This document shows, piece by piece, positions 18,458 through 32,798 of a stretch of 64,000 nucleotides of DNA. The notes beneath the pieces are model-generated. The model worked only from the letters and a program-made list of their open reading frames with translations, did no database searches and was not told the origin of the DNA. Position numbers and translations under genes: made by a program. The stretch covers positions 8,255 through 72,254 of the forward strand of contig JAQUWE010000003.1 in the NCBI GenBank assembly GCA_028693035.1, given 5' to 3'. The number at the start of each line of letters is the position of its first letter. The stretch's first letter is position 1. Source of the stretch: Bacilli bacterium. GTDB lineage: Bacteria > Bacillota_I > Bacilli_A > RF39 > UBA660.

Positions 18458-18470
18458 GGGAGAGGTATAT

Positions 18471-19604: not shown

Positions 19605-20418
19605 AGAAATAGAAAGAAATATCATAAAAAAATATCGTAAGGAAATTTGGAGTAAATTTATTAAAGCAGTACAACAATATGAACTTATCAAAGAAAATGA
19701 TCGGATTATGGTTTGTATTTCGGGTGGAAAAGATTCCTTTTTATTAGCAAAATGTATCCAAGAGTTAGAAAAACATGGAAAGGTTCCTTTTGAAGCACAT
19801 TACGTGGTAATGGATCCAGGGTATAATGCATACAATCGTGATTTTATCGTAGACAATGCCAAAACACTAGATGTACCTATTGAAATATTTGAAACAGATA
19901 TCTTTGATATAGTAGCGTCTACTGATAAAAGTCCTTGCTATTTATGTGCCAAAATGAGAAGGGGTTACTTATATAAAAAAGCAAGTGAATTAGGGTGTAA
20001 TAAAATTGCGCTTGGGCATCACTTTGACGATGTCATTGAAACCACTCTTTTATCTATGTTTTATGGTTCTGAAATCAAAACAATGATGCCAAAACTGCAT
20101 AGTGAAAATTTTGAGGGGCTCGAACTCATTAGACCTTTATACCTTGTTAAAGAAGAAGATATAATCGCTTGGAAAAAGTCTAATGAACTAACCTTTATCA
20201 ATTGTGCGTGCCGGTTTACAGAAGGGTGTTCTTTAGTCAATGATGGAACAAGTAAACGAAAAGAAATGAAAGAACTGATTAAAACTTTAAGAAAAGTAAA
20301 CCAAGATATAGACCATAACATTTTTAAGAGTCTAGACAATGTCAATTTAAATTGTATACTTGGTACTAAAAAGAATGGGGAATATAGTAGCTTTTTAGAA
20401 AAGTATGATGAAAAATAG
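19591..20418 (+). CDS. PP-loop ATPase, TtcA/tRNA thiolation family
   Basis: SGGKDS PP-loop, CYLCAKMRRG and a later CACRF cysteine pair. Overlaps the desulfurase gene by 14 nt. Confidence 0.75.
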   Translation: MEKYKEIERNIIKKYRKEIWSKFIKAVQQYELIKENDRIMVCISGGKDSFLLAKCIQELEKHGKVPFEAHYVVMDPGYNAYNRDFIVDNAKTLDVPIEIFETDIFDIVASTDKSPCYLCAKMRRGYLYKKASELGCNKIALGHHFDDVIETTLLSMFYGSEIKTMMPKLHSENFEGLELIRPLYLVKEEDIIAWKKSNELTFINCACRFTEGCSLVNDGTSKRKEMKELIKTLRKVNQDIDHNIFKSLDNVNLNCILGTKKNGEYSSFLEKYDEK

Positions 20419-20496: not shown

Positions 20497-21636
20497 ATGG
20501 CAGGATTACAAAAATTAAATTTAAAGTTTGAAAATGGAAATAACGTTTGTATAAATGATACTTATCTGGTTCCAATTTATGAAGAAATATTAGAATTCTT
20601 GAATAATGAAAAGTATATGGAAACGCTTTCATTTGCTAAAAGCGCTATGCTCTCTCAAGAAATAAAGTGCAATGTAACACTGGAAAAAATAGAACATACG
20701 TCAAATAATATTGACCAATTAATTATAAATGATAAAAAGATAAGAGTTGAAGAGAGGAAAAGAATTATCAACTTATATCATGGATATCAATATATTTTAT
20801 CAAACAAAATAATAAATCAAAATAATTTAACAGAATTGTATTCTATTTTGAGTCACGAAATACTTCTTACTAACAATCAAAAAAACACGGGACAATTTTA
20901 TAGAAATAAACCTGTCTATCTTTTGAAAAAATGTAAGTTAACAGAGGATGTCATTATGGGGGTTGATCCGTGTAATGTTCCTCAATATATGAACCATTTT
21001 TTTGATTATATAAATGATGGGAGTCCAACCACAAAAATGGAACACTTTCTGAAGTCACAAATCATGCATTTCTATTTCCTTTACATTCATCCATATCTTG
21101 ATATAAACGGACGGACTGCAAGAACTGTATCAATGTGGTATTTACTAAATAACAAATGTTATCCTTATGTCATATTTAATAAAGCAATTGCTTTCGCTAA
21201 GAAAGAATATGAAAATGCCCTAACAAAAGGAAGAGACAAAGGAGACATTACTTTATTTTTAAAATATATTTTGGTAAATATGAAAAGAGAATTAGAAAAA
21301 GAGTATATTATCCATAGTATTGTAGAAAATTGTAAGGAAGATATATCTAGAAAAGAACAGCAAGTAATTCATTATTTTTTAACTATGAATGGTAATTTAA
21401 CAGTAAAGGATTTAATAGGTGTTTATAATTGTTACAATCCTGCAAAAAGACCCAATATTGTATACGAAGAAAATGTAGTTTCTCTTATAGAAAAAGGAAT
21501 TTTTTTAAATAAGGGGTATACAAAAGGATATATAGCAAATGAAAAACCAAATATGATGATAGGTTTAAATCCAGATATGGTGAATGTCAATATATCTAAA
21601 GTAAAGCTTTTATCTTTAAATAAAATTATGTATTAG
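20497..21636 (+). CDS. Fic family protein
   Basis: Fic motif HPYLDINGRTAR (HxFx[DE]xNGRxxR-like). Confidence 0.8.
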   Translation: MAGLQKLNLKFENGNNVCINDTYLVPIYEEILEFLNNEKYMETLSFAKSAMLSQEIKCNVTLEKIEHTSNNIDQLIINDKKIRVEERKRIINLYHGYQYILSNKIINQNNLTELYSILSHEILLTNNQKNTGQFYRNKPVYLLKKCKLTEDVIMGVDPCNVPQYMNHFFDYINDGSPTTKMEHFLKSQIMHFYFLYIHPYLDINGRTARTVSMWYLLNNKCYPYVIFNKAIAFAKKEYENALTKGRDKGDITLFLKYILVNMKRELEKEYIIHSIVENCKEDISRKEQQVIHYFLTMNGNLTVKDLIGVYNCYNPAKRPNIVYEENVVSLIEKGIFLNKGYTKGYIANEKPNMMIGLNPDMVNVNISKVKLLSLNKIMY

Positions 21637-21652
21637 AAAAGGTGTTATTAGT

Positions 21653-22345
21653 ATGAATCAAGAAAATATAGGAAAATTCATAAAAAAACTTAGACAAGAA
21701 AGTCATTTGACCCAAAAACAATTTGCGGACAAATATGGGGTTACTTTCCAAGCTGTTAGTAAATGGGAGAATGGGAAAAACATTCCTGACATTTCTGTAT
21801 TAAGACAAATCTGCAAAGACCATGGCATTAGTATGGAAGAAATATTAGGAGATAAACCTACTCATAAAAGTAAGAAGCCATTTATTATTGTAGGGGCTAT
21901 CATTTTCCTTATTATTCTTTTCACTTGTTTATTTTTCTTTTTAGAAAATAAATCTTCAGACTTTCAGTTTAAAAAAATATCTACAACATGTTCTTCTTTT
22001 AAAATAACAGGAAGTGCAGCCTATAATAAAGATAAATCTTCTTTATATATTTCTAATATTGAATTTTGTGGAAAAAATGAAAATATAGAATATAAAGAAC
22101 TTACCTATACTTTATATGAAAATTATGAAAAGGGAAAATCAAAAATAAGTGGAGGAAATCAAGAACAAAATCTCACTTTAGTAAATTTCTTAAAAAAAAT
22201 AAAAATCAATGTAGATCATTATGAACAACTTTGTAAATCATTCACACATTCTAATTTATCTATTGAAATTAAAGCAATCGATTATGAAAATAAGGAAACC
22301 TTATTTAAAATCCCACTTTTATTAGAAAAAAATTGTGAAGTATAA
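21653..22345 (+). CDS. XRE-family HTH regulator with a single TM helix and an extracytoplasmic domain
   Basis: N-terminal IKKLRQESHLTQKQFADKYGVTFQAVSKWENGKNIPD, followed by the hydrophobic segment FIIVGAIIFLIILFTCLFFF. Confidence 0.8.
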   Translation: MNQENIGKFIKKLRQESHLTQKQFADKYGVTFQAVSKWENGKNIPDISVLRQICKDHGISMEEILGDKPTHKSKKPFIIVGAIIFLIILFTCLFFFLENKSSDFQFKKISTTCSSFKITGSAAYNKDKSSLYISNIEFCGKNENIEYKELTYTLYENYEKGKSKISGGNQEQNLTLVNFLKKIKINVDHYEQLCKSFTHSNLSIEIKAIDYENKETLFKIPLLLEKNCEV

Positions 22346-22436: not shown

Positions 22437-23126
22437 ATGAAAAATAAAATAATAGCAGCTAGTTTAATATTTCTTACTGTTTTCACTTTAACCGCATGTA
22501 ATAAAGTAGAAAGCAATAAGGAAGAAGCCCTTAAATTTAAAGAAGATTATGAATCTTTAAATGGAAAAACAAATAGTGCTGGGAAAGAGCACCGTACCCT
22601 TGCCATCAAAGAGGACAACCCTTATGTTTTTACATCAGCAGATAAAATTGTAGAAAAAATAGAAAAAGGAGAAACTTTCTATGTTTACTTCGGTTCAAAA
22701 TTATGTCCTTGGTGCCGTAGTGTAATTGAAAAATCTATAGAAGTTGCGAAAGAAAAAGGCATTAAAAAAATCTATTATGTAGATATTTGGGATAATGAAG
22801 GAAATGAAATCTTAAGAGATAAATATAGTTTAGATGAAAATAAAGAAGCAAAACAATCTATAAAAGGTCCAGATTCTTATTATAAATTATTGGATCACTT
22901 TAAAGCATTGCTTCCAGATTATACTTTAACTGATGAAGAAGGAAATGAACATGCTGTTGGAGAAAAAAGAATTTTTGCCCCTACCTTTATTTATGTAAAA
23001 GAGGGTACTGCAAAAGCAATAACAGATGGTACATCAGACAAACAAAAAGATGCTAGAGCTACTTTAACAAAAGAATTATTAAATGATGAAGAACAATTAT
23101 TTACTAATTTTTTTGAAGCAAGGTAG
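22437..23126 (+). CDS. thioredoxin-fold lipoprotein
   Basis: Lipobox LTACN after the signal peptide, and a CPWC redox motif. Confidence 0.7.
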   Translation: MKNKIIAASLIFLTVFTLTACNKVESNKEEALKFKEDYESLNGKTNSAGKEHRTLAIKEDNPYVFTSADKIVEKIEKGETFYVYFGSKLCPWCRSVIEKSIEVAKEKGIKKIYYVDIWDNEGNEILRDKYSLDENKEAKQSIKGPDSYYKLLDHFKALLPDYTLTDEEGNEHAVGEKRIFAPTFIYVKEGTAKAITDGTSDKQKDARATLTKELLNDEEQLFTNFFEAR

Positions 23127-23152
23127 TAAAATAAATTCTAAGTAAAGAAGAG

Positions 23153-23188
23153 ATAGAGTAATTTCTAAAGGAAATTCTCTATTTTTTT
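23153..23188 (+). terminator. intrinsic terminator
   Basis: ATAGAG(T)AATTTC-taaag-GAAATTCTCTAT followed by T7. Confidence 0.7.
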
Positions 23189-23263: not shown

Positions 23264-23292
23264 TTGCCCTTATTTAGATGTAGTGCTATAAT
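23264..23292 (+). promoter_or_regulatory. sigma-A-type promoter of the 10-gene operon
   Basis: TTGCCC, a 17-nt spacer, then TATAAT. Confidence 0.55.
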
Positions 23293-23295
23293 TAT

Positions 23296-23316
23296 AAATG
23301 CAAATGATTAGCATTT
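23296..23316 (+). promoter_or_regulatory. Fur-family operator candidate (7-1-7 inverted repeat)
   Basis: AAATGCAAAT-G-ATTAGCATTT matches 9 of 10 positions between arms. The core TGCAAAT-G-ATTAGCA starts 7 nt after the -10 hexamer and 22 nt before the first ATG. Confidence 0.6.
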
Positions 23317-23337
23317 GTGCAAAAAGGAGAAAATATA

Positions 23338-23802
23338 ATGAATAATTTTTTAAATGCAAAAAGTGTAACTTTTCATGCTTATTATAAAGAAGACGAAGAG
23401 GGTCTTGCACTACCTATTTTACAGCAAGATGAAGAAAATATAAGTATTGAATTCGATGTGAAAGATTTTGATTGTCTAGAATTACAGCTCTTGTTCGATG
23501 ATAAACAATCGTTGCCATCAGAGCTTCATTTTAAAACAAAGGTAGCAGGGGATCCACTTTTACTTATAGTAGAACCCAAAAAGGAAATACCAGAAGAAGA
23601 GGAACCTGTCAAATATCATGATTATCAAATCGATGATGTAGAGCAAGAACTTCATATAGAATTAAATCCTATGACTAGGGAACTAAATATTGATGCATGG
23701 GGATGGATCAATCAAAATAGAAAAGCAGTTCTTTCCGTATCTGCTACTTATCAAAATGAAAAGAATTCACAATTTATAAAAACAAGGAAAGAAGGGAAAT
23801 AA
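23338..23802 (+). CDS. acidic hypothetical protein (first gene of the operon)
   Basis: ATG 23338 follows AAAGGAG; the GTG at 23317 in the ORF track lies inside the operator/SD region. No recognisable motif. Confidence 0.5.
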   Translation: MNNFLNAKSVTFHAYYKEDEEGLALPILQQDEENISIEFDVKDFDCLELQLLFDDKQSLPSELHFKTKVAGDPLLLIVEPKKEIPEEEEPVKYHDYQIDDVEQELHIELNPMTRELNIDAWGWINQNRKAVLSVSATYQNEKNSQFIKTRKEGK

Positions 23803-24800
23803 TGAGAGTATCATTCTTAGGAAAGGGTGGAAGCGGAAAAACAACGATATCTTCTGCTTTTATAGGATATTTACTTAATAAAAAAGAAAAGGTATTAGCG
23901 ATTGATGCTGATATGAATGTCCATTTAGAAAAAACATTTCATATGGAAACAAAGCCATTAAGTGATGCTAGTGAAGAAATTAAGGAATACTTAGAAGGTA
24001 ATAGAAGAGCTTATACAAAGAATAACAATAAAGTGAAAAGTTATTTAAACAAAGTGATCAATGGAGATACCAAAGCTCCGATTATAGGTTGTACCCCGCC
24101 AGCACGTTCCTCAAAGTTTATTAGAATTGACGAAAACGATCCCTTTATTAAAAAATATGCTACCAAAAAGGATGGACTTTATCTAATGACAGTTGGAACT
24201 TACAATGAAAGTGAAATAGGTTCTAGTTGTTACCACGGTAAGTTAGAAGTCGCAGAGATGGTGTATCACCACTTATTGGATAATGAAAACAACTATGTGG
24301 TTTCTGATTCAACGGCAGGAATAGACAGTGTAGGAACTTCTATGTTTTTTGTGTCTGATATAAATATATTTGTAATTGAACCTACAAAAAAAGGCATTGA
24401 TGTTTACAAAGATTTTAAAGAGGTTTCTAAAAAATATGGTATAAACACTTACGTAATTGGAAACAAAATTGAAAACCAAGAAGATATTGATTTTTTAAAA
24501 CAAGAAATTGGTACAGATGTAATTCTTGGGTTTATAAAAAATTCTTCAAAAATGAGAAAATTTGAACAAGGAAATGCAGTAGGAATGAAAGAATTTATCA
24601 AAGAAAATACAGATACTTTTGATAGAGTCTGCGCACTTATGCAAGAAACAAAACGGGATTGGGATAAATACTATCAAATATTGCTTGAAGTTTATAAAGC
24701 CAATATTGAGGAATGGTATAATGCATTTTATGGTGAGAAATTAGAAAAATATATTGATGAAGACTTCCACTATGAAAAGGTTTTCAATGAAGAAAATTAA
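23802..24800 (+). CDS. SIMIBI-class P-loop NTPase (CooC/MinD/ArsA-like), possible metallochaperone
   Basis: Deviant Walker A FLGKGGSGKTT, AIDADMN, and a later SDSTAG switch-like motif. TAATG overlap with the upstream gene. Confidence 0.65.
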   Translation: MRVSFLGKGGSGKTTISSAFIGYLLNKKEKVLAIDADMNVHLEKTFHMETKPLSDASEEIKEYLEGNRRAYTKNNNKVKSYLNKVINGDTKAPIIGCTPPARSSKFIRIDENDPFIKKYATKKDGLYLMTVGTYNESEIGSSCYHGKLEVAEMVYHHLLDNENNYVVSDSTAGIDSVGTSMFFVSDINIFVIEPTKKGIDVYKDFKEVSKKYGINTYVIGNKIENQEDIDFLKQEIGTDVILGFIKNSSKMRKFEQGNAVGMKEFIKENTDTFDRVCALMQETKRDWDKYYQILLEVYKANIEEWYNAFYGEKLEKYIDEDFHYEKVFNEEN

Positions 24801-26220
24801 ATTTACGCCTTTAATAGATGAACCGATTTTATCCTTTTTGAAAGATAAAAATCAGGTTAAGAAATTAACAAGTATGTTTGGTTCCCCATGCAATGTTCTT
24901 TTTCCTCAAAGGTTACAAGAAAATATAAATATATTCTATAATATTTTTGATAAACATTTGATTGATGGAAAGGTTTTTTATGCACATAAAGCCAATCAGT
25001 CTACTGCGATTGTTAAAGAGGCAGCGCTTACAAAAGCTAGTATTGATGTAGCTTCCTTAAATGAACTTAAAAGTGCTGTTTCATCAGGTTTTGTAGGCGA
25101 TAAAATAGAAGCAACAGGTCCTAAAAACATTCATTTTCTTATATTGGGATTGCAACACCATATTACTTTTAATATTGATTCTATTAGTGAACTAGAACAA
25201 CTTCTTATTTTAAAGGAAAAGTTAAAAATAAAACAGAAAATAAAAATAATATGTAGAATAAGTGGATTTAGATACAACGACATGCTTTCTAAAAAAAGTA
25301 GATTTGGAATAGATATAGAAGAAATGGATACCTGTTTTTGTATGATAAAAGAAAACTTGCAAAAGATAGATTTTCTAGGTTTTTCATTTCATTTAGATAC
25401 TATTATGAAGCAAGAAAAAGTCAATGCTATTTGTACATGTATTGAATTGTTTTTAACGGCTTATAAGTATGGTCTTACACCTCATATTTTAGATATTGGA
25501 GGTGGATACAAAGTCAATTACTTAAAAGATAAGGAAGAATGGGATGAAAGCATTACAGCATTAAAGTTGTCTCTTTTCTCACAAGAATCTTTTACATGGA
25601 ATGATGCTTCTTTTGGTTTAACAGTGAAAAATCATACCTTATCTGGTACTTTGAATATTTACAATTATTATGATGAAGAAACAGCAGATAAGTATTTAAA
25701 TGCTATATTAGAAAGCAAATTAGAACAATATCAAAATCAAACAATAGGAGAGATACTAAGTGAAAACATGATTACACTATATATCGAACCTGGAAAATCC
25801 CTTTTAAATCAAATGGGTATTACTTTAGCAAACGTTACATTTATAAAAAAAAGCAATCAAGAAATTTTGATTGGATTGGATATGAAAAAAAGTGATGTTG
25901 TAATTGGCGAACAAGAGCTTTTTATGGATCCTATCATTCTTTCTGATGCAGAAAAATTACAAAAAGAAGTAGGCGTTTATTTTGTTGGAAATCTTTGCCT
26001 AGAGAATGATTTAATTTTTAAACACAAAGTTTTTATTGATCGTATTCCTAAAATAGGTGATGTAATAGCTTTTATGAATACTGCAGGATATTTTATGGAC
26101 TTTAATGCAAGCTCTACCATAAAGCAAAATATAGCAAAAAAAGTAATTGCTATAAAAAAAGAAAAGGGTTTTGATTATTACGAAGATGAAATTTATCATC
26201 CGTTAGTAGATAAGGAGTAA
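24787..26220 (+). CDS. PLP-dependent decarboxylase, Orn/DAP/Arg decarboxylase (fold type III) family
   Basis: FYAHKANQS (PLP-lysine motif YAxKAN), DIGGGY and EPGKSL motifs. Start uncertain (24772 or 24787). Confidence 0.7.
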   Translation: MKKIKFTPLIDEPILSFLKDKNQVKKLTSMFGSPCNVLFPQRLQENINIFYNIFDKHLIDGKVFYAHKANQSTAIVKEAALTKASIDVASLNELKSAVSSGFVGDKIEATGPKNIHFLILGLQHHITFNIDSISELEQLLILKEKLKIKQKIKIICRISGFRYNDMLSKKSRFGIDIEEMDTCFCMIKENLQKIDFLGFSFHLDTIMKQEKVNAICTCIELFLTAYKYGLTPHILDIGGGYKVNYLKDKEEWDESITALKLSLFSQESFTWNDASFGLTVKNHTLSGTLNIYNYYDEETADKYLNAILESKLEQYQNQTIGEILSENMITLYIEPGKSLLNQMGITLANVTFIKKSNQEILIGLDMKKSDVVIGEQELFMDPIILSDAEKLQKEVGVYFVGNLCLENDLIFKHKVFIDRIPKIGDVIAFMNTAGYFMDFNASSTIKQNIAKKVIAIKKEKGFDYYEDEIYHPLVDKE

Positions 26221-26222
26221 AA

Positions 26223-27548
26223 ATGTTATATAAAAATACAATTGATTTAATTGGCAATACTCCACTAGTAGAGATTGATGCCAAAATACACGGGCTTAAA
26301 AATATAAATATATATGCAAAATTAGAAATATATAATCCTTTTGGATCCGTAAAAGATCGAACGGCTTATGGTCTTTTAAAAAATCATATAGAAGAAATCA
26401 AACAGAACAAACAAGTTGTTTTAGAATCTTCTAGTGGAAATACAGCCAAAGCCTTGTCTATCCTTTGTGGGATACATGATATTCCTTTTAAAACGATTAC
26501 AAATCGAATAAGGGTTTCAGAGACAAGAGACATTTTAAAAGTAGTAGGTGCTACCATAGAAGAACTTCCTGGTTTATCTGAATGCCCAGATCCAACAGAT
26601 CCTAATGATCCTATTAAATATATAGAACGTCTTATGGTAAAAGATCCAAACAAGTATTTTCATACATCACAGTATACCAATTTAGATAATCCCTTAATGC
26701 ATTACAATACAACAGGAAAAGAAATATGGGATGATTTAGGAAAGGTGGATTACTTTTTTGGTACCCTTGGGACAACCGGGTCGAGTCGTGGAATTGTAGA
26801 ATATTTACTAGAAAAAAATAGTCATTTAAAGAAGATGGGAATTATCGCATCAAAAGGAGATGACATTCCTGGTATTAGAAATCTTGACGAAATGTATGAA
26901 GTTGGAATTTTTGAGAAAAAACTTTATGATGATATTGTAACGGTAAACGCTATGGATGCTTTAGATGCTATGGACTCTTTAATTAAAAAATGTGGCATTT
27001 TAGGAGGACCAACCAGTGGTGCTTGCTACCAAGGTATGATGCAGTACTTAAAAAAAATAGATGCAACACTCAATAAAAAGGTTAATGCTGTCTTTGTAGT
27101 TTGTGATAGATTTGAAGGATATATATCTTATATTAAAAAAAGAAAACCAGAGATATTTAATAACGATGTAAAAAAGGAAAGTATATGGAATTTAAAAGAA
27201 GAGGATCAAAACTATGCAAAAGAAATAGACAGCAAAGATGCTATACATTGGATAGAAGATAGGCAATCACTTATAATTGATTTAAGAGGCAATCTTGCTT
27301 ACCGAAATGGTCATTTGAAAAATTCTATTAATATTTTAGAACACTGTTTTGAGGATTTAACAGATAACACGATTCCATTCACACCCAACAATAAAATTTT
27401 ATTAATATGTCCAACCGGTTTAAAATCAAAAAAATTTAGTATTTTATTAAACAAAAGAGGATTGGATGTATACAGTTTAAAAGGCGGTATAATAGAATGG
27501 CGCAATCAAAATTACCCTCTGGAAAGAATCAACATAGCGGAATCATGA
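26223..27548 (+). CDS. cysteine synthase/SbnA-like PLP enzyme (fold type II) fused to a C-terminal rhodanese domain
   Basis: GSVKDRTA (PLP Lys), SSGNTAKA, GTLGTTGSSRG and GGPTSGA. The C-terminal roughly 100 aa has IIDLRGNLAYRNGHLKNSINI and the active-site loop CPTGLKS. Confidence 0.75.
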   Translation: MLYKNTIDLIGNTPLVEIDAKIHGLKNINIYAKLEIYNPFGSVKDRTAYGLLKNHIEEIKQNKQVVLESSSGNTAKALSILCGIHDIPFKTITNRIRVSETRDILKVVGATIEELPGLSECPDPTDPNDPIKYIERLMVKDPNKYFHTSQYTNLDNPLMHYNTTGKEIWDDLGKVDYFFGTLGTTGSSRGIVEYLLEKNSHLKKMGIIASKGDDIPGIRNLDEMYEVGIFEKKLYDDIVTVNAMDALDAMDSLIKKCGILGGPTSGACYQGMMQYLKKIDATLNKKVNAVFVVCDRFEGYISYIKKRKPEIFNNDVKKESIWNLKEEDQNYAKEIDSKDAIHWIEDRQSLIIDLRGNLAYRNGHLKNSINILEHCFEDLTDNTIPFTPNNKILLICPTGLKSKKFSILLNKRGLDVYSLKGGIIEWRNQNYPLERINIAES

Positions 27549-28726
27549 ACATAGAAAAAATAAGATGTGAATTTCCTTTTTTTAAGAACAATCCAAATGT
27601 TATTTATTTTGACAATGCCGCTACCACACAAAAGCCAAAAATTGTACTTGAAAAAATAAATGATTATTATACCAATCAGTGCTATAATGTGAATAGGGGA
27701 AAATATAAACCTGCCAATGACTTGTCTTTAGAAATAGATAGAAGTAGGCAAAAAATTTGTGATTTTATAAATGCAAATAAAGTAGAAGAAGTACATTTTA
27801 TAAATGGAGCTTCCTCTGTTGCAAATGACTTATCTATTTTATTAAGTGGCGTTTTTTTAAAACCTTTAGATGAGGTACTTCTATGTAAAAGTGACCATAA
27901 ATCTACAGTTTCTCCTTGGATTCATGTTTTAGATACTATGAAAGAAAAAGAATGTAAAATAGTACCTATATTATTATCTCCATCGGGCGATTATGATGAG
28001 AATGATTTGTATCAGAAACTATCTAATAAGACAAAAGTTGTTATACTCACTCATATTCATAATGTACATGGTATGGAAATGAATATCCAAGAAATTATAA
28101 AAAAAGTTAGAGAAAAAACAAACGCAAAAATTATTGTGGATGCTACCCAAAGTATTGCACACACAAAAGTGGATGTGCAAGAGATAGATGCTGATGCTTT
28201 ATATTTTTCAGGGCATAAAATGTTTGCCCAAACAGGAATTGGTATTTTATGGATGAAGGAAGAAACAAATCAGGAATTATTGCAATATTTCTGTTATGAT
28301 AATCAGAATCCACATCAATTATTTGAAAAAGGAACACCCAATATCAGTGGAATATTGTCTTTGGGATGTGCTACTGATTTTATAACAATGCTAGGGATTG
28401 AAAAAATAGAGCAATATCTATTAGAACTTACTACATACCTTATCAATAATCTTAAAAAAATTGAAAGCGTAGAATTTGATAGTGGCCCCGCTGTATGCAG
28501 TTGCAAAGAAGGGTATGGGATTGTATCTTTTAAAGTAGATGGTTACCATGTTTCCGAAATAGCAGAAGCATTATCGTTTCAAAATATTTTTGTAAGAGCA
28601 GATACACAATGTTCCTACAATGAGAGAAATTCTTATCTTAGAGTCAGTCTTCAAATTTACAATACAAAAGAAGAAATAGATAGATTTATAAAAGCAATTA
28701 CACAAATTATAGAATGGAGTGTATAG
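27545..28726 (+). CDS. SufS/CsdA-like cysteine desulfurase (class V aminotransferase)
   Basis: FDNAATTQKP, the SGHKM PLP lysine, and a C-terminal RADTQCS loop with a candidate persulfide cysteine. ATGA overlap with the upstream gene. Confidence 0.75.
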   Translation: MNIEKIRCEFPFFKNNPNVIYFDNAATTQKPKIVLEKINDYYTNQCYNVNRGKYKPANDLSLEIDRSRQKICDFINANKVEEVHFINGASSVANDLSILLSGVFLKPLDEVLLCKSDHKSTVSPWIHVLDTMKEKECKIVPILLSPSGDYDENDLYQKLSNKTKVVILTHIHNVHGMEMNIQEIIKKVREKTNAKIIVDATQSIAHTKVDVQEIDADALYFSGHKMFAQTGIGILWMKEETNQELLQYFCYDNQNPHQLFEKGTPNISGILSLGCATDFITMLGIEKIEQYLLELTTYLINNLKKIESVEFDSGPAVCSCKEGYGIVSFKVDGYHVSEIAEALSFQNIFVRADTQCSYNERNSYLRVSLQIYNTKEEIDRFIKAITQIIEWSV

Positions 28727-28727
28727 T

Positions 28728-29129
28728 ATGAAAGAAATAATAGGAAAGAATACAAAACATAGAAAAAATTTGTTAGAAATTTTAAATAAGGCAGAAATAG
28801 CTTTATCTGTAGAAGATATTTATCAAATTATGGTGCAAAATGGAGATAAGAAATTAGCATTGTCTACTGTTTATCGCAATATGAATGTAATGGTAGAGTC
28901 TGGACAAGTCAGCAAAGTTTTTGACGAACTCGGTACCGCCCTATACAAGGTTAATTCTCATATACATTCTCATCAACTAGAGTGTCAAAAGTGTCATAAA
29001 AAGGTTGTAATAGATGTTTGTCCGTATGACTTAGTACAAAATACAATCTTAAAAGATAAAGATTTTACCATCGTAGAAAATACAGCTTTACTACAAGGAT
29101 ACTGTAAAGGCTGTCTACCAAAAGTGTAA
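28728..29129 (+). CDS. Fur family transcriptional regulator (Fur, Zur or PerR type not assignable)
   Basis: LSTVYRNM DNA-binding helix, HSHQLECQKCHK and CKGC (two CxxC pairs of the structural Zn site). Confidence 0.8.
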   Translation: MKEIIGKNTKHRKNLLEILNKAEIALSVEDIYQIMVQNGDKKLALSTVYRNMNVMVESGQVSKVFDELGTALYKVNSHIHSHQLECQKCHKKVVIDVCPYDLVQNTILKDKDFTIVENTALLQGYCKGCLPKV

Positions 29130-29147
29130 AGGAGAAAAATAGTCTAT

Positions 29148-30059
29148 ATGCAAGATTTATCTATTATATTTTTATCTATATTATTAGAAGCCATTCCCTT
29201 TATATTACTAGGGGTTTTTGTTTCCGCACTCATTGAAGAATTCGTATCTCCTGATTTTTTCAGTAAAATCATTCCTAAAAATCCTATTTTAGGAGCGATA
29301 GTAGGTGTTATTATGGGATTTTTTGTACCAGCCTGTGATTGTGCGGTTATCCCTATTTCTAAAAGACTTATCAAAAAAGGGGTTCCTATCAATGTTGCGA
29401 TTACCTTTATGTTAGCGTCTCCCATTGTAAACCCCGTTGTTATTTTATCCACATTCTACGCCTTTGGAACCTTGCTTCCTAAAATGATTATCATGAGAAC
29501 AATTCTTGGAATTATTTTAGCCATTATCATTGGATATAGAGTAGGATCTAACCAGGACGAAGAAGATATTTTGAAGTACAATGTGCAAGATGAAAATGAA
29601 AAATGTGGGTGTGAATCCTGTAATATGAGTGAACCTTACTTATTAAAAGGCAAAGGTTTAAAAAGCAGAATGATTAATATCTTAATTAGAGCCAATAAAG
29701 AATTTTGGGATATTTGTAAATATTTAATTATAGGTGCATTGATTGCCAGTGTTATGCAGGTCTATGTACCAAGAGATATTTTAACATCTATAAGCAGCAA
29801 TTCTATTTTATCAATTGTTTGCCTAATGATTTTTGCTTATTTACTATCCCTTTGTTCTACATCAGATTCTTTTGTTGCCAAAACATTTATCAATCAGTTC
29901 AGCAACAGTGCTGTTTTAGCTTTCCTTCTTTTAGGACCTATGATTGATATTAAAAATACCATTGTCTTAACAGGCAATTATCAGCCTAAATTTATTGTTA
30001 AATTACTTGTTTATATCTTTGTTTGTGTCTTTTTAACTGCTCTTATTATTAAAATATAG
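29148..30059 (+). CDS. DUF318-type permease (partner of a TIGR03943-family protein)
   Basis: About 8 TM segments with repeated PACDCAVIP / LCSTSDSF motifs and a Cys-rich loop CGCESC. Followed by its typical partner gene. Confidence 0.65.
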   Translation: MQDLSIIFLSILLEAIPFILLGVFVSALIEEFVSPDFFSKIIPKNPILGAIVGVIMGFFVPACDCAVIPISKRLIKKGVPINVAITFMLASPIVNPVVILSTFYAFGTLLPKMIIMRTILGIILAIIIGYRVGSNQDEEDILKYNVQDENEKCGCESCNMSEPYLLKGKGLKSRMINILIRANKEFWDICKYLIIGALIASVMQVYVPRDILTSISSNSILSIVCLMIFAYLLSLCSTSDSFVAKTFINQFSNSAVLAFLLLGPMIDIKNTIVLTGNYQPKFIVKLLVYIFVCVFLTALIIKI

Positions 30060-30075
30060 AAGGAGAAAATGCTTT

Positions 30076-30879
30076 ATGAAACTAAGAAAATCTTTTAAAA
30101 TAGTAATCTTTGCTTTTTATGCAGGAATGATTTTTTTCCTTTATTTTAGTGGTATGATAAAAAGGATGATCCATCCAAGAATGTATCCTTTTATTCTACT
30201 ATCAGCTGTTATCCTTCTTTTATTTTGTATCGTAGAACATCTCTTTTTAAAAAAACAGAGACTAGGGCGTATTCAATTTTTCAATTTTGTCTATTTAATT
30301 CCTATTGTTTGTATCTTTTTTACAAATAATGCGAATCTTAGTAATAAGATTATTCAAAATAAAGGAATCAATATTGGTCTTAATTCCAACCAAAATGCCA
30401 GTACAAATAAAGCACAAAAAAAGACTACGGATCAACAGGACAACGATATTATAGAAGAGCGTTTTGAAGAAGATATACCAAAGCAAAACCAGGAAGAAAC
30501 ATCTAAAAAAAGTAGTGAAAAAAAAGAAATGATTGAAATAGCGGATGCTGATTTCTTATGGCAAGTAAGTGATATTTCCATTAATATAAATGATTATGTT
30601 GGAAAAGAAGTTAGTTATACGGGATTTATTTATAGAGATGAAACAGTAGAAGCCAATCAGTTTGTAGTAGGAAGGCTCGCTATGACATGCTGCACAGCAG
30701 ATGCTGGACTTATGGGATTTTTGGCTACCTATGCTGATTATGCCAATATCAAAGATGGTGACTGGTATCAAATTAAAGCAGTTATTGATAAAAGAAAGTA
30801 TAATGGCGTTATGCTTCCTTATTTAAAAATATATGAGGTTGTAAAAGTAGATAAACCAGCTGACGAATATGTATATTAA
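30076..30879 (+). CDS. TIGR03943-family putative permease subunit
   Basis: Two or three N-terminal TM helices, a low-complexity linker, and a C-terminal domain with the conserved MTCCTADA motif. Confidence 0.65.
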   Translation: MKLRKSFKIVIFAFYAGMIFFLYFSGMIKRMIHPRMYPFILLSAVILLLFCIVEHLFLKKQRLGRIQFFNFVYLIPIVCIFFTNNANLSNKIIQNKGINIGLNSNQNASTNKAQKKTTDQQDNDIIEERFEEDIPKQNQEETSKKSSEKKEMIEIADADFLWQVSDISININDYVGKEVSYTGFIYRDETVEANQFVVGRLAMTCCTADAGLMGFLATYADYANIKDGDWYQIKAVIDKRKYNGVMLPYLKIYEVVKVDKPADEYVY

Positions 30880-30906
30880 AAAGGCTTGGTTATAAGGAAG
30901 TGTATT

Positions 30907-31986
30907 ATGAAAAAAAGAATCAATAAAAATAATTTAGTTCCAATTTTGCTCATACTTGGTGCGCTAAGTATGATCTTTTTTGTGTATCATAATGATGCTT
31001 TTTATTCTAAAACAATTGTAAAGTGTGAGAAAGTAGAAACAAGTAAAACAGAGGTATCTACCAATGCACAAGGATTTAAAGAACAATATTATAAACAAAA
31101 CATTATTGGTATGATTACAAATGGAAATCAAAAAGGGAAAGAAATAAAGCTTGCAAATGAATATGCAGATTCGCTAGTGGTTACAGAAAAATACAAAGTA
31201 GGGAACAAGGTATTTGTGGATGGCAAAAATATCGAAGGACTAAAAAGAGATACCTATATGGTAACTATGACTGTACTTTTTATTGTAATGCTTTATTTTA
31301 TTGGAAAAGTACGAGGCTTAACTGCCATTATCAGTGTTATTTTTAATATCCTTATTTTCTATTTTGGATTGTATTTTTATTTTAAAGGAATGAATTTGTT
31401 ATTGCTTTGTATGATAGAGTCCCTCTTTTTTACCGTCTTTTCTTTATTGCTAGCAGGTGGTAAAAATAAAAAAACAGTAGCGGCTATTCTATCGGTGATT
31501 GCGTCTACCATCCTATTGTTTATCATGACGTATATTGTCATTTCTGTTACTCATTACAAAGACATTAGTTTTAATGAAATGAATTTTCTTACCGTTCCTG
31601 TAGAAGATGTATTTATGGCAAGTCTTATGATTGGTGGTCTTGGTGCTATTATGGATATTGCTATCACTATGGCGTCTTCAATTGCGGAACTTATCCAAAA
31701 GGATAATAAAATAAGTACAAAGGCCTTAATAAAATCAGGCACAGAAATTGGAAAAGATATTTTTAGTACAATGATTAATGTTTTGTTTTTTACTTATTTA
31801 TGTGGAAGTTTGCCAATCTTTGTTTTATCTTTAAGAAATGGCTTTACTTTATATAATTATATAACAAGTAATTTTTCTATTGAATTATCTAGATTTTTTG
31901 TAGGGAGTATTGGCATTATTTTAACCATTTCTATTTCTTTACTTCTTTCTATTTTCCTTTTAAAAAGAGGTGATACACATGAATAA
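30907..31986 (+). CDS. YibE/F family membrane protein
   Basis: N-terminal TM helix plus an extracytoplasmic domain, then about 6 TM segments with the GLGAIMDIAITMASS motif. Confidence 0.6.
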   Translation: MKKRINKNNLVPILLILGALSMIFFVYHNDAFYSKTIVKCEKVETSKTEVSTNAQGFKEQYYKQNIIGMITNGNQKGKEIKLANEYADSLVVTEKYKVGNKVFVDGKNIEGLKRDTYMVTMTVLFIVMLYFIGKVRGLTAIISVIFNILIFYFGLYFYFKGMNLLLLCMIESLFFTVFSLLLAGGKNKKTVAAILSVIASTILLFIMTYIVISVTHYKDISFNEMNFLTVPVEDVFMASLMIGGLGAIMDIAITMASSIAELIQKDNKISTKALIKSGTEIGKDIFSTMINVLFFTYLCGSLPIFVLSLRNGFTLYNYITSNFSIELSRFFVGSIGIILTISISLLLSIFLLKRGDTHE

Positions 31987-32734
31987 AATACTTGGATGTA
32001 TTCTTATTTTACTGATGATTTTAGTCGGTGGTAAAAGAGGGGTTAAAGCATCTATTACTTTGGTACTAAATTTTCTTGTGTTACTGGTTGCTTTTTATTT
32101 GATTACACTTGGCATTTCTCCTATTGTAGTTTCTCTATTAGGGTGCTGTTTCATTGCTTATATTGTTTTATTTTTAACAGGTGGCGATACCATTAAAACA
32201 AGAACCACCTTTCTATCTGTTCTTTTGGTTTTGCTTTTGATGACAGCCTTTATTATAGTTGTAACCAAAGGGTCTATGATAGAAGGGTTTGGTAGTGAAT
32301 CATATGAAGAAATCAATATGTTTTCTTATGACATTGGCATTCGTTTAACAGATATTACCGTTTCTCTTATTTTAATAGGACTTATCGGTGCGATGATAGA
32401 TACTTCCATTGCGATAGCCTCTGCTGTTTATGAAGTTTATACAAATAACAAAGACCTAAATCAAAAGCAGCTATTTCATTCAGGTATGCGCATTGGTAGA
32501 GATATATTAGGCACTACAGTCAATACACTTTTCTTTGCATTTTTAGGAGAATTTATAACTTTACTTATTTGGTTTTATAGTTGCCATTATTCTTTTGGAG
32601 AAATTATCAATGCCAAAGTATTTTGTGCAGAATTCGTGAAAATATTATTTATAGGTTTTGGAAGTATCTTTATTATTCCTATTTCTGCTTATATGATTTC
32701 TTATCAAATCACTAAAAAAGTAAAAAAAGAATAA
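31979..32734 (+). CDS. YibE/F family membrane protein (second copy)
   Basis: Multi-TM protein with a paralogous motif GLIGAMIDTSIAIASA. Overlaps the previous gene by 8 nt. Confidence 0.6.
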   Translation: MNKILGCILILLMILVGGKRGVKASITLVLNFLVLLVAFYLITLGISPIVVSLLGCCFIAYIVLFLTGGDTIKTRTTFLSVLLVLLLMTAFIIVVTKGSMIEGFGSESYEEINMFSYDIGIRLTDITVSLILIGLIGAMIDTSIAIASAVYEVYTNNKDLNQKQLFHSGMRIGRDILGTTVNTLFFAFLGEFITLLIWFYSCHYSFGEIINAKVFCAEFVKILFIGFGSIFIIPISAYMISYQITKKVKKE

Positions 32735-32766
32735 ACAAAAAACATATAAACATATAAAAATAAAAG

Positions 32767-32798
32767 GGCATTTTTGAATTAGAAAAATGTCTTTTTTT
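32767..32798 (+). terminator. intrinsic terminator ending the operon
   Basis: GGCATTTTT-gaattag-AAAAATGTC followed by T7. It is the first convincing hairpin plus T run after 23188. Confidence 0.65.

Follow-up and report, generated by a model that had tools for sequence, protein, structure and literature searches.

What might a ten-gene operon accomplish that combines a deviant-Walker-A ATPase, three PLP enzymes, a Fur-family regulator and two pairs of membrane proteins behind a single inverted repeat, and which metal could it serve? Our best explanation, to which we give a probability of about one half, is that it is an autoregulated metal-starvation operon in which a new metallochaperone-type ATPase would act together with a sulfur-relay pathway to an N,S ligand; zinc is the favoured metal, and nickel or cobalt is possible. 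Gene content, catalytic motifs, a conserved cassette, a conserved operator and metal-related neighbours are established by the analysis below. A literature search found no paper describing this gene combination, in line with the earlier note, which had not recognised it as a characterised system.

Layout and control of the operon

Ten tightly packed ORFs on one strand (+) occupy positions 23338-32734 of the window, the 64-kb stretch of DNA analysed here (Table 1). p1 and p2 share a single base (23802), p2 overlaps p3, p4 overlaps p5 by ~52 nt, p5 and p6 overlap or abut, and p9 overlaps p10; the spacings of p3/p4, p6/p7, p7/p8 and p8/p9 are 2, 18, 16 and 6-27 nt, respectively. The start of p3 is most likely ATG 24787 rather than TTG 24754, matching the L007 gene call on the same DNA. 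The arrangement described in the earlier note, one promoter and inverted repeat followed by ten same-strand genes, was confirmed, with an extended -10, a 10-1-10 repeat and overlaps or small gaps, and Pfam and NCBIfam searches returned the domain content it had given for the ten genes. Its statement that no hairpin with a T run lies between 23188 and 32767 was wrong: a 10-bp hairpin at 30950-30973, followed by UCUUUUUUGU, lies within the 5' part of p9 and equals the terminal terminator in strength. This hairpin is a possible attenuator, or may be a coincidence since terminator-like sites in the region are as numerous as chance predicts (4 versus 3.7 expected).

Table 1 Features of the operon and its control region
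Feature	Coordinates	Strand	Description
Promoter	23264..23292	+	sigma-70-type; TTGCCC, 17 nt, TG-extended TATAAT; 10/12 match
Operator	23296..23316		inverted repeat AAATGCAAAT-G-ATTAGCATTT; arms 23296-23305 / 23307-23316, 9/10 complementary
p1	23338..23802	+	acidic cytoplasmic protein, 154 aa; 32 D+E vs 17 K+R; predicted all-beta sandwich
p2	23802..24800	+	CooC-like deviant-Walker-A ATPase; GKGGSGKT; invariant Cys143-Tyr-His145
p3	24787..26220	+	fold-type III PLP decarboxylase, nearest diaminopimelate decarboxylase; lysA 115 bits vs 298 cut-off
p4	26223..27548	+	fusion of CysM/SbnA-like beta-replacement PLP domain (8-302) and rhodanese domain (340-428); Pfam/NCBIfam
p5	27497..28726	+	type II (SufS/CsdA-like) cysteine desulfurase; TIGR01979 297 bits, cut-off 475
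p6	28728..29129	+	Fur-family regulator; PF01475; two CxxC pairs, HxHxH motif, DVCPY
p7	29148..30059	+	DUF318/ArsP_1 permease; PF03773, 240 bits; membrane CDC motif, CGCESC loop
p8	30076..30879	+	TIGR03943/DUF1980 partner subunit, CCTADA motif; 140.5 bits vs 88.8 cut-off; DUF1980 N- and C-terminal domains
p9	30886..31986	+	YibE/F-family membrane protein; PF07907, 199 bits; N-terminal extracytoplasmic domain ~100 aa
p10	31970..32734	+	second YibE/F-family membrane protein; PF07907, 226.5 bits
Internal hairpin	30950..30983	+	terminator-like hairpin and U run inside p9; -11 kcal/mol, z -3.05
Terminator	32762..32798	+	intrinsic, operon end; hairpin 32762-32796, -11.7 kcal/mol, z -4.08, then UUUUUUUG

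Promoter-like matches are no commoner in this AT-rich DNA than expected by chance (63 found versus 68.9), so the promoter call rests on its position and on conservation in orthologues, the order of -35, -10 and box being kept in the low-GC orthologous loci L006, L010, L012, L014, L015, L019, L023 and L024. The operator repeat itself exceeds chance, and is the sole match to TGCAAATNATTTGCA at ≤2 mismatches in the window. It begins 4 nt past the -10, and this position is kept in at least 10 independent related loci, a geometry that fits repression; the box was found upstream of the operon in L006, L008, L010-L015, L019, L023, L024, L032, L070 and L075. Its core reads TGCAAAT-N-ATTAGCA here (23299-23313) and TGCAAAT-N-ATTTGCA as conserved across loci. 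The PerR box is TTATAAT-N-ATTATAA, and the operator differs from it and from the Fur and Zur boxes; it is not a known Fur or Zur box. Written as aTGCAA-N5-TTGCAt, it matches the Nur box, tTGCaa-N5-ttGCAA, at 10/12 positions with identical spacing (PMC2691836).

For p6, every NCBIfam subfamily model scored under its cut-off, PerR models being the best (48 and 43 bits), and among PDB entries S. coelicolor and M. tuberculosis Zur ranked highest (E about 3e-8); Nur (3EYY) was not among the PDB matches at E≤0.01. p6 lacks the sensing residues that are canonical for Zur, PerR and Nur, which counts against our main reading. It carries no histidine where PerR has His37, His91 and His93, and in our alignment Lys and Phe stand opposite His70 and His72 of the Nur nickel site. 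p6 is presumed to be an autorepressor binding the operator, and the operon is apparently switched off by this metal-sensing repressor of its own. Another lineage with the same cassette has a second Fur subfamily and its own box at the same position, indicating that Fur-family control is the constant, not one particular regulator. The Fur-family control proposed earlier is supported by the conservation of the operator and of a cluster-encoded Fur-family gene across distant loci, but not by the nature of the box or by the sensing histidines of Zur and PerR, which p6 lacks.

A four-gene cassette in related genomes

Comparison with 90 related loci indicated that the conserved unit is four genes, encoding the CooC-like ATPase, the DAP-decarboxylase-like enzyme, the CysM/SbnA-like-rhodanese fusion and the SufS-like desulfurase. 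Judged by gene neighbourhoods, this core recurs in many anaerobic Firmicutes of gut and sediment. Its genes lie side by side and overlap one another in gut MAGs, Alkaliphilus metalliredigens (with a p4/p5 overlap of similar kind) and Natranaerovirga pectinivora, as they do in environmental contigs, to ~39% ATPase identity. The locus is therefore not the fixed ten-gene system envisaged earlier: only the ATPase gene and the PLP trio travel together, and both membrane pairs (DUF318 with TIGR03943, YibE with YibF) are, on the same comparison, add-ons of this lineage. Often found with the cassette are genes for a Fur-family protein and a small acidic protein. p1 has no Pfam or NCBIfam match, and a search of 1.8 billion proteins at E≤1e-3 yielded just 4 representative clusters; its homologues adjoin the ATPase gene in L006, L010, L014, L015, L019, L024 and L001. 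Its AF2 model (pLDDT 64) gave generic jelly-roll structure matches only.

Variant cassettes bear on function. In the closest relatives, L006 and L012, the PLP trio is swapped for a radical-SAM/SPASM enzyme and two other proteins, so the ATPase does not strictly need the trio; this replaceability, like the non-conservation of the membrane genes with the cassette, speaks against the main reading. L026 keeps ATPase, decarboxylase and fusion without the desulfurase. Judged by sequence motifs, the L026 cassette also encodes a SAM methyltransferase and a flavin reductase, and that of L018 a GNAT; such tailoring genes fit small-molecule synthesis. Metal-related neighbours include a His/Cys-rich COG0523 GTPase inserted in the L023 cassette, Fur, ZIP and YibE/F genes opposite the ATPase gene in L090, and ABC-3/ZnuBC-type genes upstream in L050, L058 and L064; in Alkaliphilus, CbiMQO (CbiM-CbiQ-CbiO Ni/Co ECF transporter), which adjoins the cassette, is preceded by a second copy of the box at a distance of 76 nt. 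None of the loci with gene calls or annotated neighbours showed a nickel enzyme (CODH, hydrogenase, urease) beside the cassette.

Redox genes adjoin the cassette in L001-L003, that of L001 lying amid the redox-stress genes for desulfoferrodoxin, glutathione peroxidase and a thioredoxin-reductase-like flavoprotein. It is conceivable, though quite unlikely, that the trio makes a low-molecular-weight thiol protecting strict anaerobes under a PerR-like regulator, with metal only as the sensor cofactor. Such a pathway would agree with these neighbours, the top PerR scores of p6, the sulfur-centred chemistry and the hosts, as Alkaliphilus and Natranaerovirga are anaerobes and the other cassette contigs come from gut-type metagenomes. 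However, p6 lacks the PerR histidines, the operator is unlike the PerR box, and the ZIP, COG0523, ABC-3 and CbiMQO neighbours and the metal-site ATPase would be left unexplained.

The ATPase and the proposed sulfur-relay enzymes

The closest solved relative of p2 is CooC1, a nickel chaperone. When p2 was aligned to CooC1 (3KJE), its SCYH fell on QCYC, placing Cys143-x-His145 on Cys112-x-Cys114, the cysteines through which the CooC1 dimer bridges Zn or Ni at its interface (PMC6006190); the p2 family thus differs from CooC in having Cys-x-His where the bridging Cys-x-Cys stands. C143 and H145 are invariant in a 31-sequence alignment, and C[YF]H occurs in 89/90 p2 homologues. The family (489 relatives at E≤1e-10) has a specific C-terminal extension of about 80 aa, and p2 has a single conserved cysteine per monomer. 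The best reading is that p2 is a putative new metallochaperone-type ATPase, and this motif, with the metal-handling neighbours in other lineages, supports the metal link proposed for the locus. Zur regulons typically comprise importers, chaperone NTPases and metallophore clusters, which speaks for the main reading. The earlier note had called metallochaperone-type NTPases recurrent in zinc-starvation regulons, but the known ones are COG0523 GTPases (PMC6103462), and CooC/MinD-type ATPases are not known as members.

A nickel or cobalt version of the system, which we regard as somewhat unlikely, would have a Ni- or Co-sensing Fur homologue, p2 as a nickel-inserting CooC relative and a trio making an N,S nickelophore or nickel-trafficking ligand, an aid that anaerobes require since sulfides tie up nickel and cobalt. 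It draws on the kinship of p2 with CooC1, the Nur-like operator, the box before CbiMQO and the L023 COG0523 protein, whose His/Cys-rich stretch is of a type that occurs in nickel chaperones. Against it, the Nur histidines are replaced in p6, Zur proteins head the PDB matches where Nur is absent, no nickel enzyme stood beside the cassette in the loci with gene calls or annotated neighbours, and the ZIP and ZnuBC-type neighbours and the Cys2His2-type site suit zinc better.

The PLP enzymes retain their catalytic residues. Kept in at least 90% of orthologues are PLP Lys79, H213, GGG249-251, EPG345-347 and Cys415 of p3 (13 orthologues); Lys44, the SSSGNT loop, Ser265 and rhodanese Cys396 of p4, together with its extra Cys121 (insertion LPGLSECPDPxDPND) and Cys294 (10 orthologues); and His134, Asp215, Gln218, His240-Lys241 and catalytic-loop Cys372 of p5 (9 orthologues), which matches SufS 5XT5 at E 1e-56. 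The nearest models of p4 are CysM (170 bits) and SbnA (158 bits); CysM-type enzymes take bulky or protein-borne sulfur donors. Every enzyme comes from a housekeeping superfamily and conservation of the cassette does not extend to the membrane genes, as would suit routine metabolism of cysteine, lysine or polyamines that happens to stand behind a Fur-type box and is followed by membrane proteins with no connection to it. This is very improbable, as p3, p4 and p5 lie far under the curated cut-offs of CysM, CysK, SbnA, LysA and SufS, and distant lineages share the fusion, the overlaps, the link to a metal-site ATPase and Fur-family control. The analogy drawn earlier with SbnA-SbnH and aes is weakened: staphyloferrin and EDDS pathways need an SbnB/AesA-type partner, which is absent. 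That the operon encodes no ligase, opine dehydrogenase or SbnB-type enzyme also speaks against the main reading.

A separate housekeeping NifS-like gene lies upstream (18429-19604), making p5 an extra copy. This would also suit a back-up metal-sulfur cluster or sulfur-trafficking system, in which p5 and the rhodanese relay feed a cluster that is built or carried where the Cys/His motifs of a p2 dimer meet, in the manner of Mrp/NBP35/ApbC-type ATPases, on induction by iron or zinc scarcity, for example bypassing zinc-dependent SufU. Desulfurase, rhodanese and MinD/Mrp-class ATPase form a minimal sulfur-to-scaffold route, and the L001 cassette sits amid redox-stress genes. We nevertheless find this unlikely, because the decarboxylase and CysM-like domain are conserved as strictly as the desulfurase and have no known role in cluster assembly, L026 dispenses with the desulfurase, p2 has one conserved cysteine per monomer, and a U-type or A-type scaffold is absent.

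A proposed pathway to an N,S ligand

For the metal-starvation operon that we favour, metal-dependent repression, the sequence of reactions, the kind of product, the choice of metal and which way transport runs are all inferred. When metal is plentiful, p6 would bind the inverted repeat past the -10 and block transcription; when it is short, all ten genes would be expressed. A p2 dimer might hold one metal ion between its two Cys-x-His motifs and release it upon ATP turnover. p5 would strip sulfur from cysteine as a persulfide for the rhodanese domain of p4, whose CysM/SbnA-like domain could join the sulfur, or a thiol, to PLP-bound aminoacrylate, and p3 would take off a carboxylate. The resulting ligand would be a small amine/thiol or thioether compound, possibly a sulfur-containing metal-binding molecule, which could be secreted as a metallophore or stay inside the cell and pass metal to p2.

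Two further observations run against this proposal. Serine-derived aminoacrylate and cysteine-derived sulfur would most simply yield cysteine, a futile outcome, and a chaperone ATPase is unusual in metallophore pathways, its welding to the PLP trio being unexplained. The metal clues also conflict: ZIP, ZnuBC-type, COG0523 and the Cys2His2-type site point to zinc, and CooC ancestry, CbiMQO and the Nur-like box to nickel or cobalt.

The DUF318 and TIGR03943 proteins and the YibE and YibF proteins would move metal, ligand or complex across the membrane. p7 matches the SO_0444 Cu/Zn efflux and SaoE models weakly, under cut-off, and L006 has an 80% identical copy in unchanged position. YibE/F genes also lie beside distant ATPase homologues in L070, L075, L090 and probably L039.

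Operon layout and the Fur-family regulator

The region from 23338 to 32734 is packed with ten ORFs, all on one strand, which encode in order an acidic protein (p1), a CooC-like ATPase (p2), a decarboxylase (p3), a CysM/SbnA-like-rhodanese fusion (p4), a SufS-like desulfurase (p5), a Fur-family regulator (p6), a DUF318 permease (p7), its TIGR03943 partner (p8) and two YibE/F-family membrane proteins (p9 and p10). All junctions are overlaps or gaps of at most 27 nt, which bears out the ten tightly spaced same-strand genes described in the earlier note. The four genes p2 to p5, hereafter the cassette, comprise the ATPase gene and a PLP enzyme trio and are translationally coupled. The start of p3 is most likely the ATG at 24787, which matches an independent gene call for the same DNA (L007). 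A TG-extended promoter followed by an inverted repeat (the box) precedes the operon, and a hairpin with a U run closes it (see the table). The same note had claimed that no hairpin with a T run lies inside the operon, which is wrong, as one occurs within p9 and equals the end terminator in strength. Because the number of terminator-like sites in the region is close to chance (4 found versus 3.7 expected), we read this hairpin only as a possible attenuator of the last two genes, or as a chance occurrence, and do not take it to demonstrate that there are two transcription units. The G+C content is uniform at ~29%, and there is therefore no indication of recent transfer. The nearest relatives of this low-GC Firmicute-like contig were found in Logan assemblies only.

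Just upstream of the operon lies a gene whose 229-aa product is lipoprotein-like, contains a CPWC motif of the thioredoxin type and has no Pfam match; this gene is preceded by genes for a Fic-domain protein (379 aa) and then an XRE-type HTH protein with a membrane segment. Further upstream, the gene of a NifS/IscS-like class-V aminotransferase (391 aa) overlaps that of a PP-loop ATPase. This pair is presumably a housekeeping desulfurase and thiolation enzyme, and the SufS-like p5 would therefore be an extra copy.

Coordinates of sequence features in the window and in related loci (L numbers)
Feature	Sequence	Position	Detail
Class-V aminotransferase and PP-loop ATPase genes	window	18429-20418	
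Fic-domain and XRE-type HTH protein genes	window	20497-22345	
Lipoprotein-like protein gene	window	22437-23126	
Terminator of the preceding gene	window	23147-23188	-16.5 kcal/mol
Promoter, TG-extended	window	23264-23292	TTGCCC-17-TATAAT
Inverted repeat, 10-1-10 (the box)	window	23296-23316	AAATGCAAAT-G-ATTAGCATTT; begins four bases past the -10
Internal hairpin in the 5' part of p9	window	30950-30983	10 bp, -11 kcal/mol, z -3.05, then UCUUUUUUGU (U run)
Operon-closing hairpin and U run	window	32762-32798	-11.7 kcal/mol
Second operator copy	L008	14171-14185	TGCAACTCATATGCA; 2 mismatches
Alternative palindrome	L001	7175-7193	GAAAACGAT-T-ATCATTTTC
Alternative palindrome	L030	3182-3200	GAAAACGAT-T-ATCATTTTC
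Alternative palindrome	L016, L017		same region
Radical-SAM variant	L006	878-4258	
Radical-SAM variant	L012	3313-5413	
CobW/COG0523 GTPase	L023	2385-3803	
YibE/F genes beside distant ATPase homologues	L090	3031-6378	
YibE/F genes beside distant ATPase homologues	L070	9312-12685	
YibE/F genes beside distant ATPase homologues	L075	1313-4022	
NucS shadow ORF	L058	3320-3709	
NucS shadow ORF	L084	1508-1900	
NucS shadow ORF	L090	6443-6892	

p6 belongs to the Fur family (PF01475, 64.8 bits against a cut-off of 23.1) and contains two CxxC pairs. Its best PDB matches are the Zur structures 3MWM and 2O03 (E ~3e-8); the Zur model itself gave 23.5 bits against a cut-off of 167, and in the HMMER alignment three of the sensing-site residues of S. 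coelicolor Zur (Asp65, Cys79, His85 and His87), namely Cys79, His85 and His87, correspond to Val, Ser and Gln. The histidines of the HIHSH stretch of p6 precede the first CxxC cysteine by 4, 6 and 8 residues, rather than by 3 and 5. PerR models scored 48 versus 200 bits, and of the PerR regulatory site (His37, Asp85, His91, His93 and Asp104), p6 has no histidine at the His37 position. A PerR-type thiol defence, in which the operon would serve a redox function, is disfavoured both by these absent PerR residues and by the neighbouring metal-transport genes. Nur was absent from the PDB matches of p6 at E≤0.01, and in our own alignment with the Nur sequence, p6 has Lys and Phe at His70 and His72 and no histidine at His33. 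In Nur, the Ni-site involves His70, His72 and His126, and the M-site His33 (PMC2691836). Overall, p6 is without the conserved residues of the Zur M-site, the PerR site and the Nur Ni-site, and its subfamily has the motifs HxHxH(E/Q)xxCxKCH and D(V/I)CPY in common.

With at most 2 mismatches allowed, TGCAAAT-N-ATTTGCA occurs once in the window, at the promoter. Among the related loci compared, the box lies directly upstream of the operon in L006, L008, L010-L015, L019, L023, L024, L032, L070 and L075. In L010, L012 and L014 its palindrome is perfect, and in low-GC loci it is located 2-12 nt past TATAAT. The core TGCAAAT is unlike the half-sites of Fur (TGATAAT), PerR (TTATAAT) and B. subtilis-type Zur (TCGTAAT, in the box TCGTAAT-N-ATTACGA). 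The core TGCAA-N5-TTGCA is shared with the box of Nur, the nickel-responsive Fur homologue of Streptomyces (tTGCaa-N5-ttGCAA; PMC2691836). At equal spacing, the Nur box agrees in 10/12 positions with the box in the window (aTGCAA-ATGAT-TAGCAt) and with that of the orthologue consensus (aTGCAA-N5-TTGCAt); the central ATNAT conserved in the present boxes is not found in Nur boxes. In a gut lineage (L001, L016, L017 and L030), the same cassette is accompanied by a Fur protein that shares just 26% identity with p6, and by another palindrome, likewise just past the -10. As two Fur subfamilies have been recruited to the same genes, we argue that metal-type control is the selected feature. In addition, a second copy of the operator was observed in Alkaliphilus metalliredigens (L008, CP000724), 76 nt upstream of a CbiM-CbiQ-CbiO operon without a CbiN/NikN gene, which suggests that a Ni/Co-type transporter and the cassette are co-regulated.

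The ATPase, the PLP enzymes and the membrane proteins

p2 is a MinD/CooC-class ATPase, and its sole significant solved relative is CooC1 (3KJE, E 4e-10), the ATP-dependent CODH nickel-insertion factor of Carboxydothermus hydrogenoformans. The two proteins share GKGGxGKTT and a MinD/SIMIBI fold alignable over both halves, and the deviant Walker A GKGGSGKTT with its signature lysine is invariant in the 31 sequences aligned. They also have a two-residue metal motif at the same alignment position, where 'IGSSCYH' of p2 stands opposite 'GGSQCYC' of CooC1 in the HMMER alignment. In CooC1, Cys112 and Cys114 bridge a single Zn or Ni where the two subunits of the dimer meet (PMC6006190). Unlike CooC, p2 has Cys-Tyr-His in place of the strictly conserved metal-bridging Cys-x-Cys motif; Cys143 and His145 are invariant in the 31 sequences, and C[YF]H is found in 89/90 homologues. 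This is direct sequence evidence for a predicted metal site of two Cys and two His across the p2 dimer, and we infer that p2 acts as a metallochaperone. p2 further differs from CooC in its low identity, in a family-specific, conserved C-terminal domain of ~80 residues with invariant Trp, Tyr and Phe (W287, Y290, W305, F322 and Y324), and in its partners, which are PLP or radical-SAM enzymes with no CO dehydrogenase gene nearby. No cooS/acs (CODH) genes were found where genes had been called or neighbours annotated, the other metagenome loci having been queried only with window and L006 proteins. At E≤1e-10 the family of this ATPase comprises 489 members, whose public names are only 'ATP-binding protein', 'AAA family ATPase' and 'CO dehydrogenase maturation factor'.

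The first enzyme of the trio, p3, is a fold-type III PLP decarboxylase closest to LysA, in which Lys79, G249-251, E345-P346-G347 and Cys415 are kept in at least 90% of 13 orthologues. It scored 115 bits against TIGR01048 (LysA, cut-off 298), and the Pfam C-terminal decarboxylase domain was not detected in it. In p4, a CysM/SbnA-like PLP domain is joined to a rhodanese domain, with Lys44, the SSSGNT loop (69-74), Ser265 and the rhodanese Cys396 kept in at least 90% of 10 orthologues. The scores of p4 were far below the cut-offs for CysM (170/413 bits), the SbnA family (158/350), CysK (134/351) and also FslC. Two extra cysteines, Cys121 in a family-specific insertion of the CysM-like domain (LPGLSECPDPTDPNDP, residues 115-130) and Cys294, are kept in at least 90% of orthologues and could carry the rhodanese-bound persulfide on to the PLP site. 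PDB entries 8H4H and 8H4Q ('Rhodanese domain-containing protein', 525-531 aa) are alignable with p4 from the PLP domain into the rhodanese region (E ~1e-21), and our literature search found no paper on this crystallised PALP+rhodanese protein. An AlphaFold model of p4 built on a shallow 10-sequence alignment had a mean pLDDT of 45, and a genome-contig scan with the p4 protein alone yielded two Ferruginibacter CysK-like loci and nothing else. The third enzyme of the trio, p5, is a SufS/CsdA-like desulfurase of type II (296.7 bits against TIGR01979 for SufS, cut-off 475.1), with His240-Lys241, which includes the PLP lysine, and the catalytic-loop Cys372 kept in at least 90% of 9 orthologues. The locus has no SufE or SufU partner and contains the rhodanese domain instead.

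All four enzymes and the regulator fall far under every curated equivalog cut-off. Judged by these scores, they are divergent superfamily members, not housekeeping versions. Ordinary metabolism would assign housekeeping roles to the LysA-, CysM- and SufS-like enzymes, an explanation that is disfavoured by their scores below threshold and by the conservation of the fusion.

p1 is a strongly acidic 154-aa protein with no family match. Its profile search found four representative relatives only, among 1.8 billion proteins, and its model (pLDDT 64) matched only generic beta-sandwich/CBM folds (TM ≤0.46). p1 was rejected as a sulfur-carrier protein since it is without a C-terminal Gly-Gly, and as the substrate of the enzymes since its single cysteine is unconserved and p1 is absent from Alkaliphilus and Natranaerovirga. 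Among the membrane proteins, p7 is a PF03773 (DUF318) permease with a membrane CxC motif, encoded 16 nt upstream of p8, which exceeds the TIGR03943/DUF1980 cut-off (140.5 vs 88.8 bits) and carries MTCCTADAG, of the CCxxDA type. The CCTADA motif and the adjoining p7 resemble the DUF318 (ArsP_1)/TIGR03943 two-subunit permeases, whereas p7 is well below the cut-offs for SO_0444-family Cu/Zn efflux (108 vs 300 bits) and SaoE (82 vs 325 bits). This pair accompanies the cassette only in the lineage of the window and L006. p9 and p10 match YibE/F (PF07907) over their full length (198.8 and 226.5 bits, cut-off 27.2), which may be a metal transporter family. YibE/F genes also adjoin distant ATPase homologues without the PLP trio in L070, L075 and L090. 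The homologues in L070 and L075 show 31-33% ATPase identity, and a TGCAAAT-type box lies in the intergenic region there; L070 and L090 each contain a Fur-family gene, and L090 also encodes a ZIP transporter.

Conservation and modularity across loci

ATPase contexts were inspected in 13 looked-up loci and 80 metagenome loci. The decarboxylase, fusion and desulfurase genes come directly after the ATPase gene in Alkaliphilus metalliredigens QYMF (cassette at about 1,737,200-1,742,200 of CP000724) and Natranaerovirga pectinivora, as well as in environmental contigs and several lineages from the gut. The adjacency of ATPase and trio persists to ~39% ATPase identity, and ATPase homologues at 30-35% identity, often from high-G+C DNA, are without the trio. 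Metagenome contigs contain abundant p4 homologues with 64-65% identity, and two of these contigs belong to MAGs that NCBI names "Clostridiales bacterium". In these contigs the gene order is Fur, ATPase, decarboxylase, fusion and desulfurase, with an acidic 144-aa protein encoded divergently and no membrane genes. Across the loci, the Fur gene and the acidic protein are frequent, not universal, and the DUF318 gene recurs only in L006, the closest relative, where it is 80% identical.

In the two closest relatives, L006 and L012 (ATPase 74% and 63% identical), other genes occupy the place of the PLP trio. The replacement in L006 consists of a radical-SAM/SPASM enzyme, to which the sactisynthase CteB is nearest (E 8e-10), and two unassigned proteins, one with a GCGLNPGLV motif, while the acidic protein, ATPase, Fur and DUF318 genes are retained in place; the L012 contig contains only the start of the radical-SAM gene. 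The u203/u151 proteins of this variant show a weak likeness to carboxyspermidine dehydrogenase (E 0.44 only), which we regard as a lead. In L023, a CobW/COG0523 GTPase is wedged between the ATPase and decarboxylase genes and contains the His/Cys-rich stretch HKGCSHSSHSHEH twice, then HHEG; thus, two different chaperone-type NTPases occur in one cassette. Judging from sequence motifs, L026 encodes a methyltransferase and a flavin reductase, and L018 a GNAT protein, which would fit small-molecule tailoring. The variable partners across loci therefore indicate a modular unit, in which the Fur-controlled ATPase is constant, the coupled chemistry is a module and the transporters are optional.

Some apparent neighbours were rejected. 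The two largest neighbour clusters (0 and 4) consist of shadow ORFs that high-GC DNA gives rise to within the ATPase gene, and the small 'partner' ORF behind the ATPase in many high-GC loci (cluster 2) is spurious. It matches PF20704 'NucS shadow ORF', and therefore the true neighbour is nucS on the opposite strand and the small ORF is an ORF-calling artefact.

A candidate metallophore pathway and its cognate metal

We tentatively propose, with a probability of about 0.3, that this cassette of anaerobic Firmicutes, including abundant uncultured gut lineages, makes a new thiol- or thioether-amine metallophore through desulfurase-to-rhodanese delivery of sulfur into a CysM-like active site. The product would work together with a new CooC-derived class of Cys-x-His metallochaperone, so that zinc or nickel/cobalt is won from sulfidic, metal-poor surroundings under a new Fur-family sensor and operator, and in sister lineages a radical-SAM route would replace the PLP chemistry. 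In such a pathway, p5 would convert cysteine to a persulfide, as in the established SufS-type mechanism, and the rhodanese domain of p4 would accept the persulfide sulfur. The CysM-like domain would then add sulfur, or a thiol, to aminoacrylate, and p3 would decarboxylate the p4 product; a diaminopimelate-like substrate would suit the LysA-like p3. Speculatively, the product may be a persulfide or an N,S ligand of the lanthionine, thialysine or cysteamine type. Such a ligand could be exported and taken up again with metal via the DUF318/TIGR03943 and YibE/F systems, or alternatively could be used intracellularly together with the ATPase.

Persulfide relays and the CysM mechanism are well established. 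As in SufS-SufE/SufU, CsdA-CsdE and IscS-rhodanese (ThiI, MOCS3), the operon combines a desulfurase with a catalytic cysteine and a dedicated acceptor cysteine, and as in CysM-CysO of M. tuberculosis, a CysM-type enzyme would use a protein-borne sulfur donor. Unlike in these relays, the acceptor is fused to the CysM-like enzyme, a decarboxylase follows, and there is no SufE, SufU or CysO. A rival explanation is a back-up metal-sulfur cluster or sulfur-trafficking route, but a role in cluster assembly alone is disfavoured, as both the decarboxylase and the CysM-like lysine are strictly conserved.

Among metallophore systems, a CysK-like and a DAP-decarboxylase-like enzyme are paired in staphyloferrin B synthesis (SbnA/SbnH) and in that of [S,S]-EDDS (AesB/AesC, Zur-repressed); the operon likewise places a CysM/SbnA-like enzyme and a DAP-decarboxylase-like one under a metal regulator of the Fur family. 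From SbnA/SbnH enzymology and the aes gene identities, such enzymes reportedly make metallophore building blocks. Metallophore clusters, EDDS among them, are present in Zur regulons (PMC6103462, where the enzymology is not given). No SbnB/AesA-type, NAD-dependent dehydrogenase was found in the window operon or in related loci with called genes or annotated neighbours. In contrast to the staphyloferrin B and EDDS systems, the operon has no synthetase and its chaperone-type ATPase is integral, and the fusion of the CysM-like enzyme to rhodanese, together with the desulfurase, points to sulfur rather than nitrogen chemistry. The operon also resembles Zur regulons with COG0523 chaperones (YciC/ZigA/ZagA), which combine a repressor, importers, a chaperone NTPase and sometimes a metallophore cluster (PMC6103462), but its NTPase is of the MinD/CooC class and not G3E/COG0523. 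By analogy, it would work like a Zur-/Nur-type starvation regulon with a metallophore cluster, using the CysK-like/decarboxylase pairing of staphyloferrin B and EDDS.

No description of the system was found in the literature, searched by its gene combination and its components. The ATPase subfamily and the Fur subgroup with its operator are new here, and the chemistry is probably new too. Strict anaerobes have to acquire Zn, Ni and Co where sulfide leaves these metals nearly insoluble, and few dedicated Zn/Ni/Co metallophores are known, to our knowledge, from gut or sediment anaerobes. The four-gene cassette with its predicted on/off switch is a concrete, cloneable candidate in this respect, carried by the cultured A. 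metalliredigens QYMF and N. pectinivora as well as by many gut-metagenome contigs. The Cys-x-His CooC/MinD branch would extend metallochaperone biology past the COG0523, HypB and UreG GTPases, and the Fur-family subgroup is set apart by its own operator and by a sensing site that departs from the canonical one. Should the pathway yield a sulfur-based chelator, this would represent a new chemical class of metallophore.

As to the cognate metal, we place zinc somewhat short of an even chance, nickel or cobalt at about one in three, and other metals at about one in five. Zinc is favoured by the Cys2His2-type site, by Zur proteins as the best regulator matches and by the COG0523 GTPase with its His/Cys-rich insert inside the L023 cassette. 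In L050, L058 and L064 the ATPase gene is closely preceded by ABC genes of the ZnuBC type, in L090 ZIP transporter, Fur and YibE/F genes are divergent from it, and the overall composition is like a Zur regulon (PMC6103462). A nickel/cobalt-specific version of the system is the rival to this assignment, and is favoured by the CooC descent of the ATPase, by the Nur-like box and by the second Alkaliphilus box preceding the CbiM-CbiQ-CbiO genes beside the cassette.
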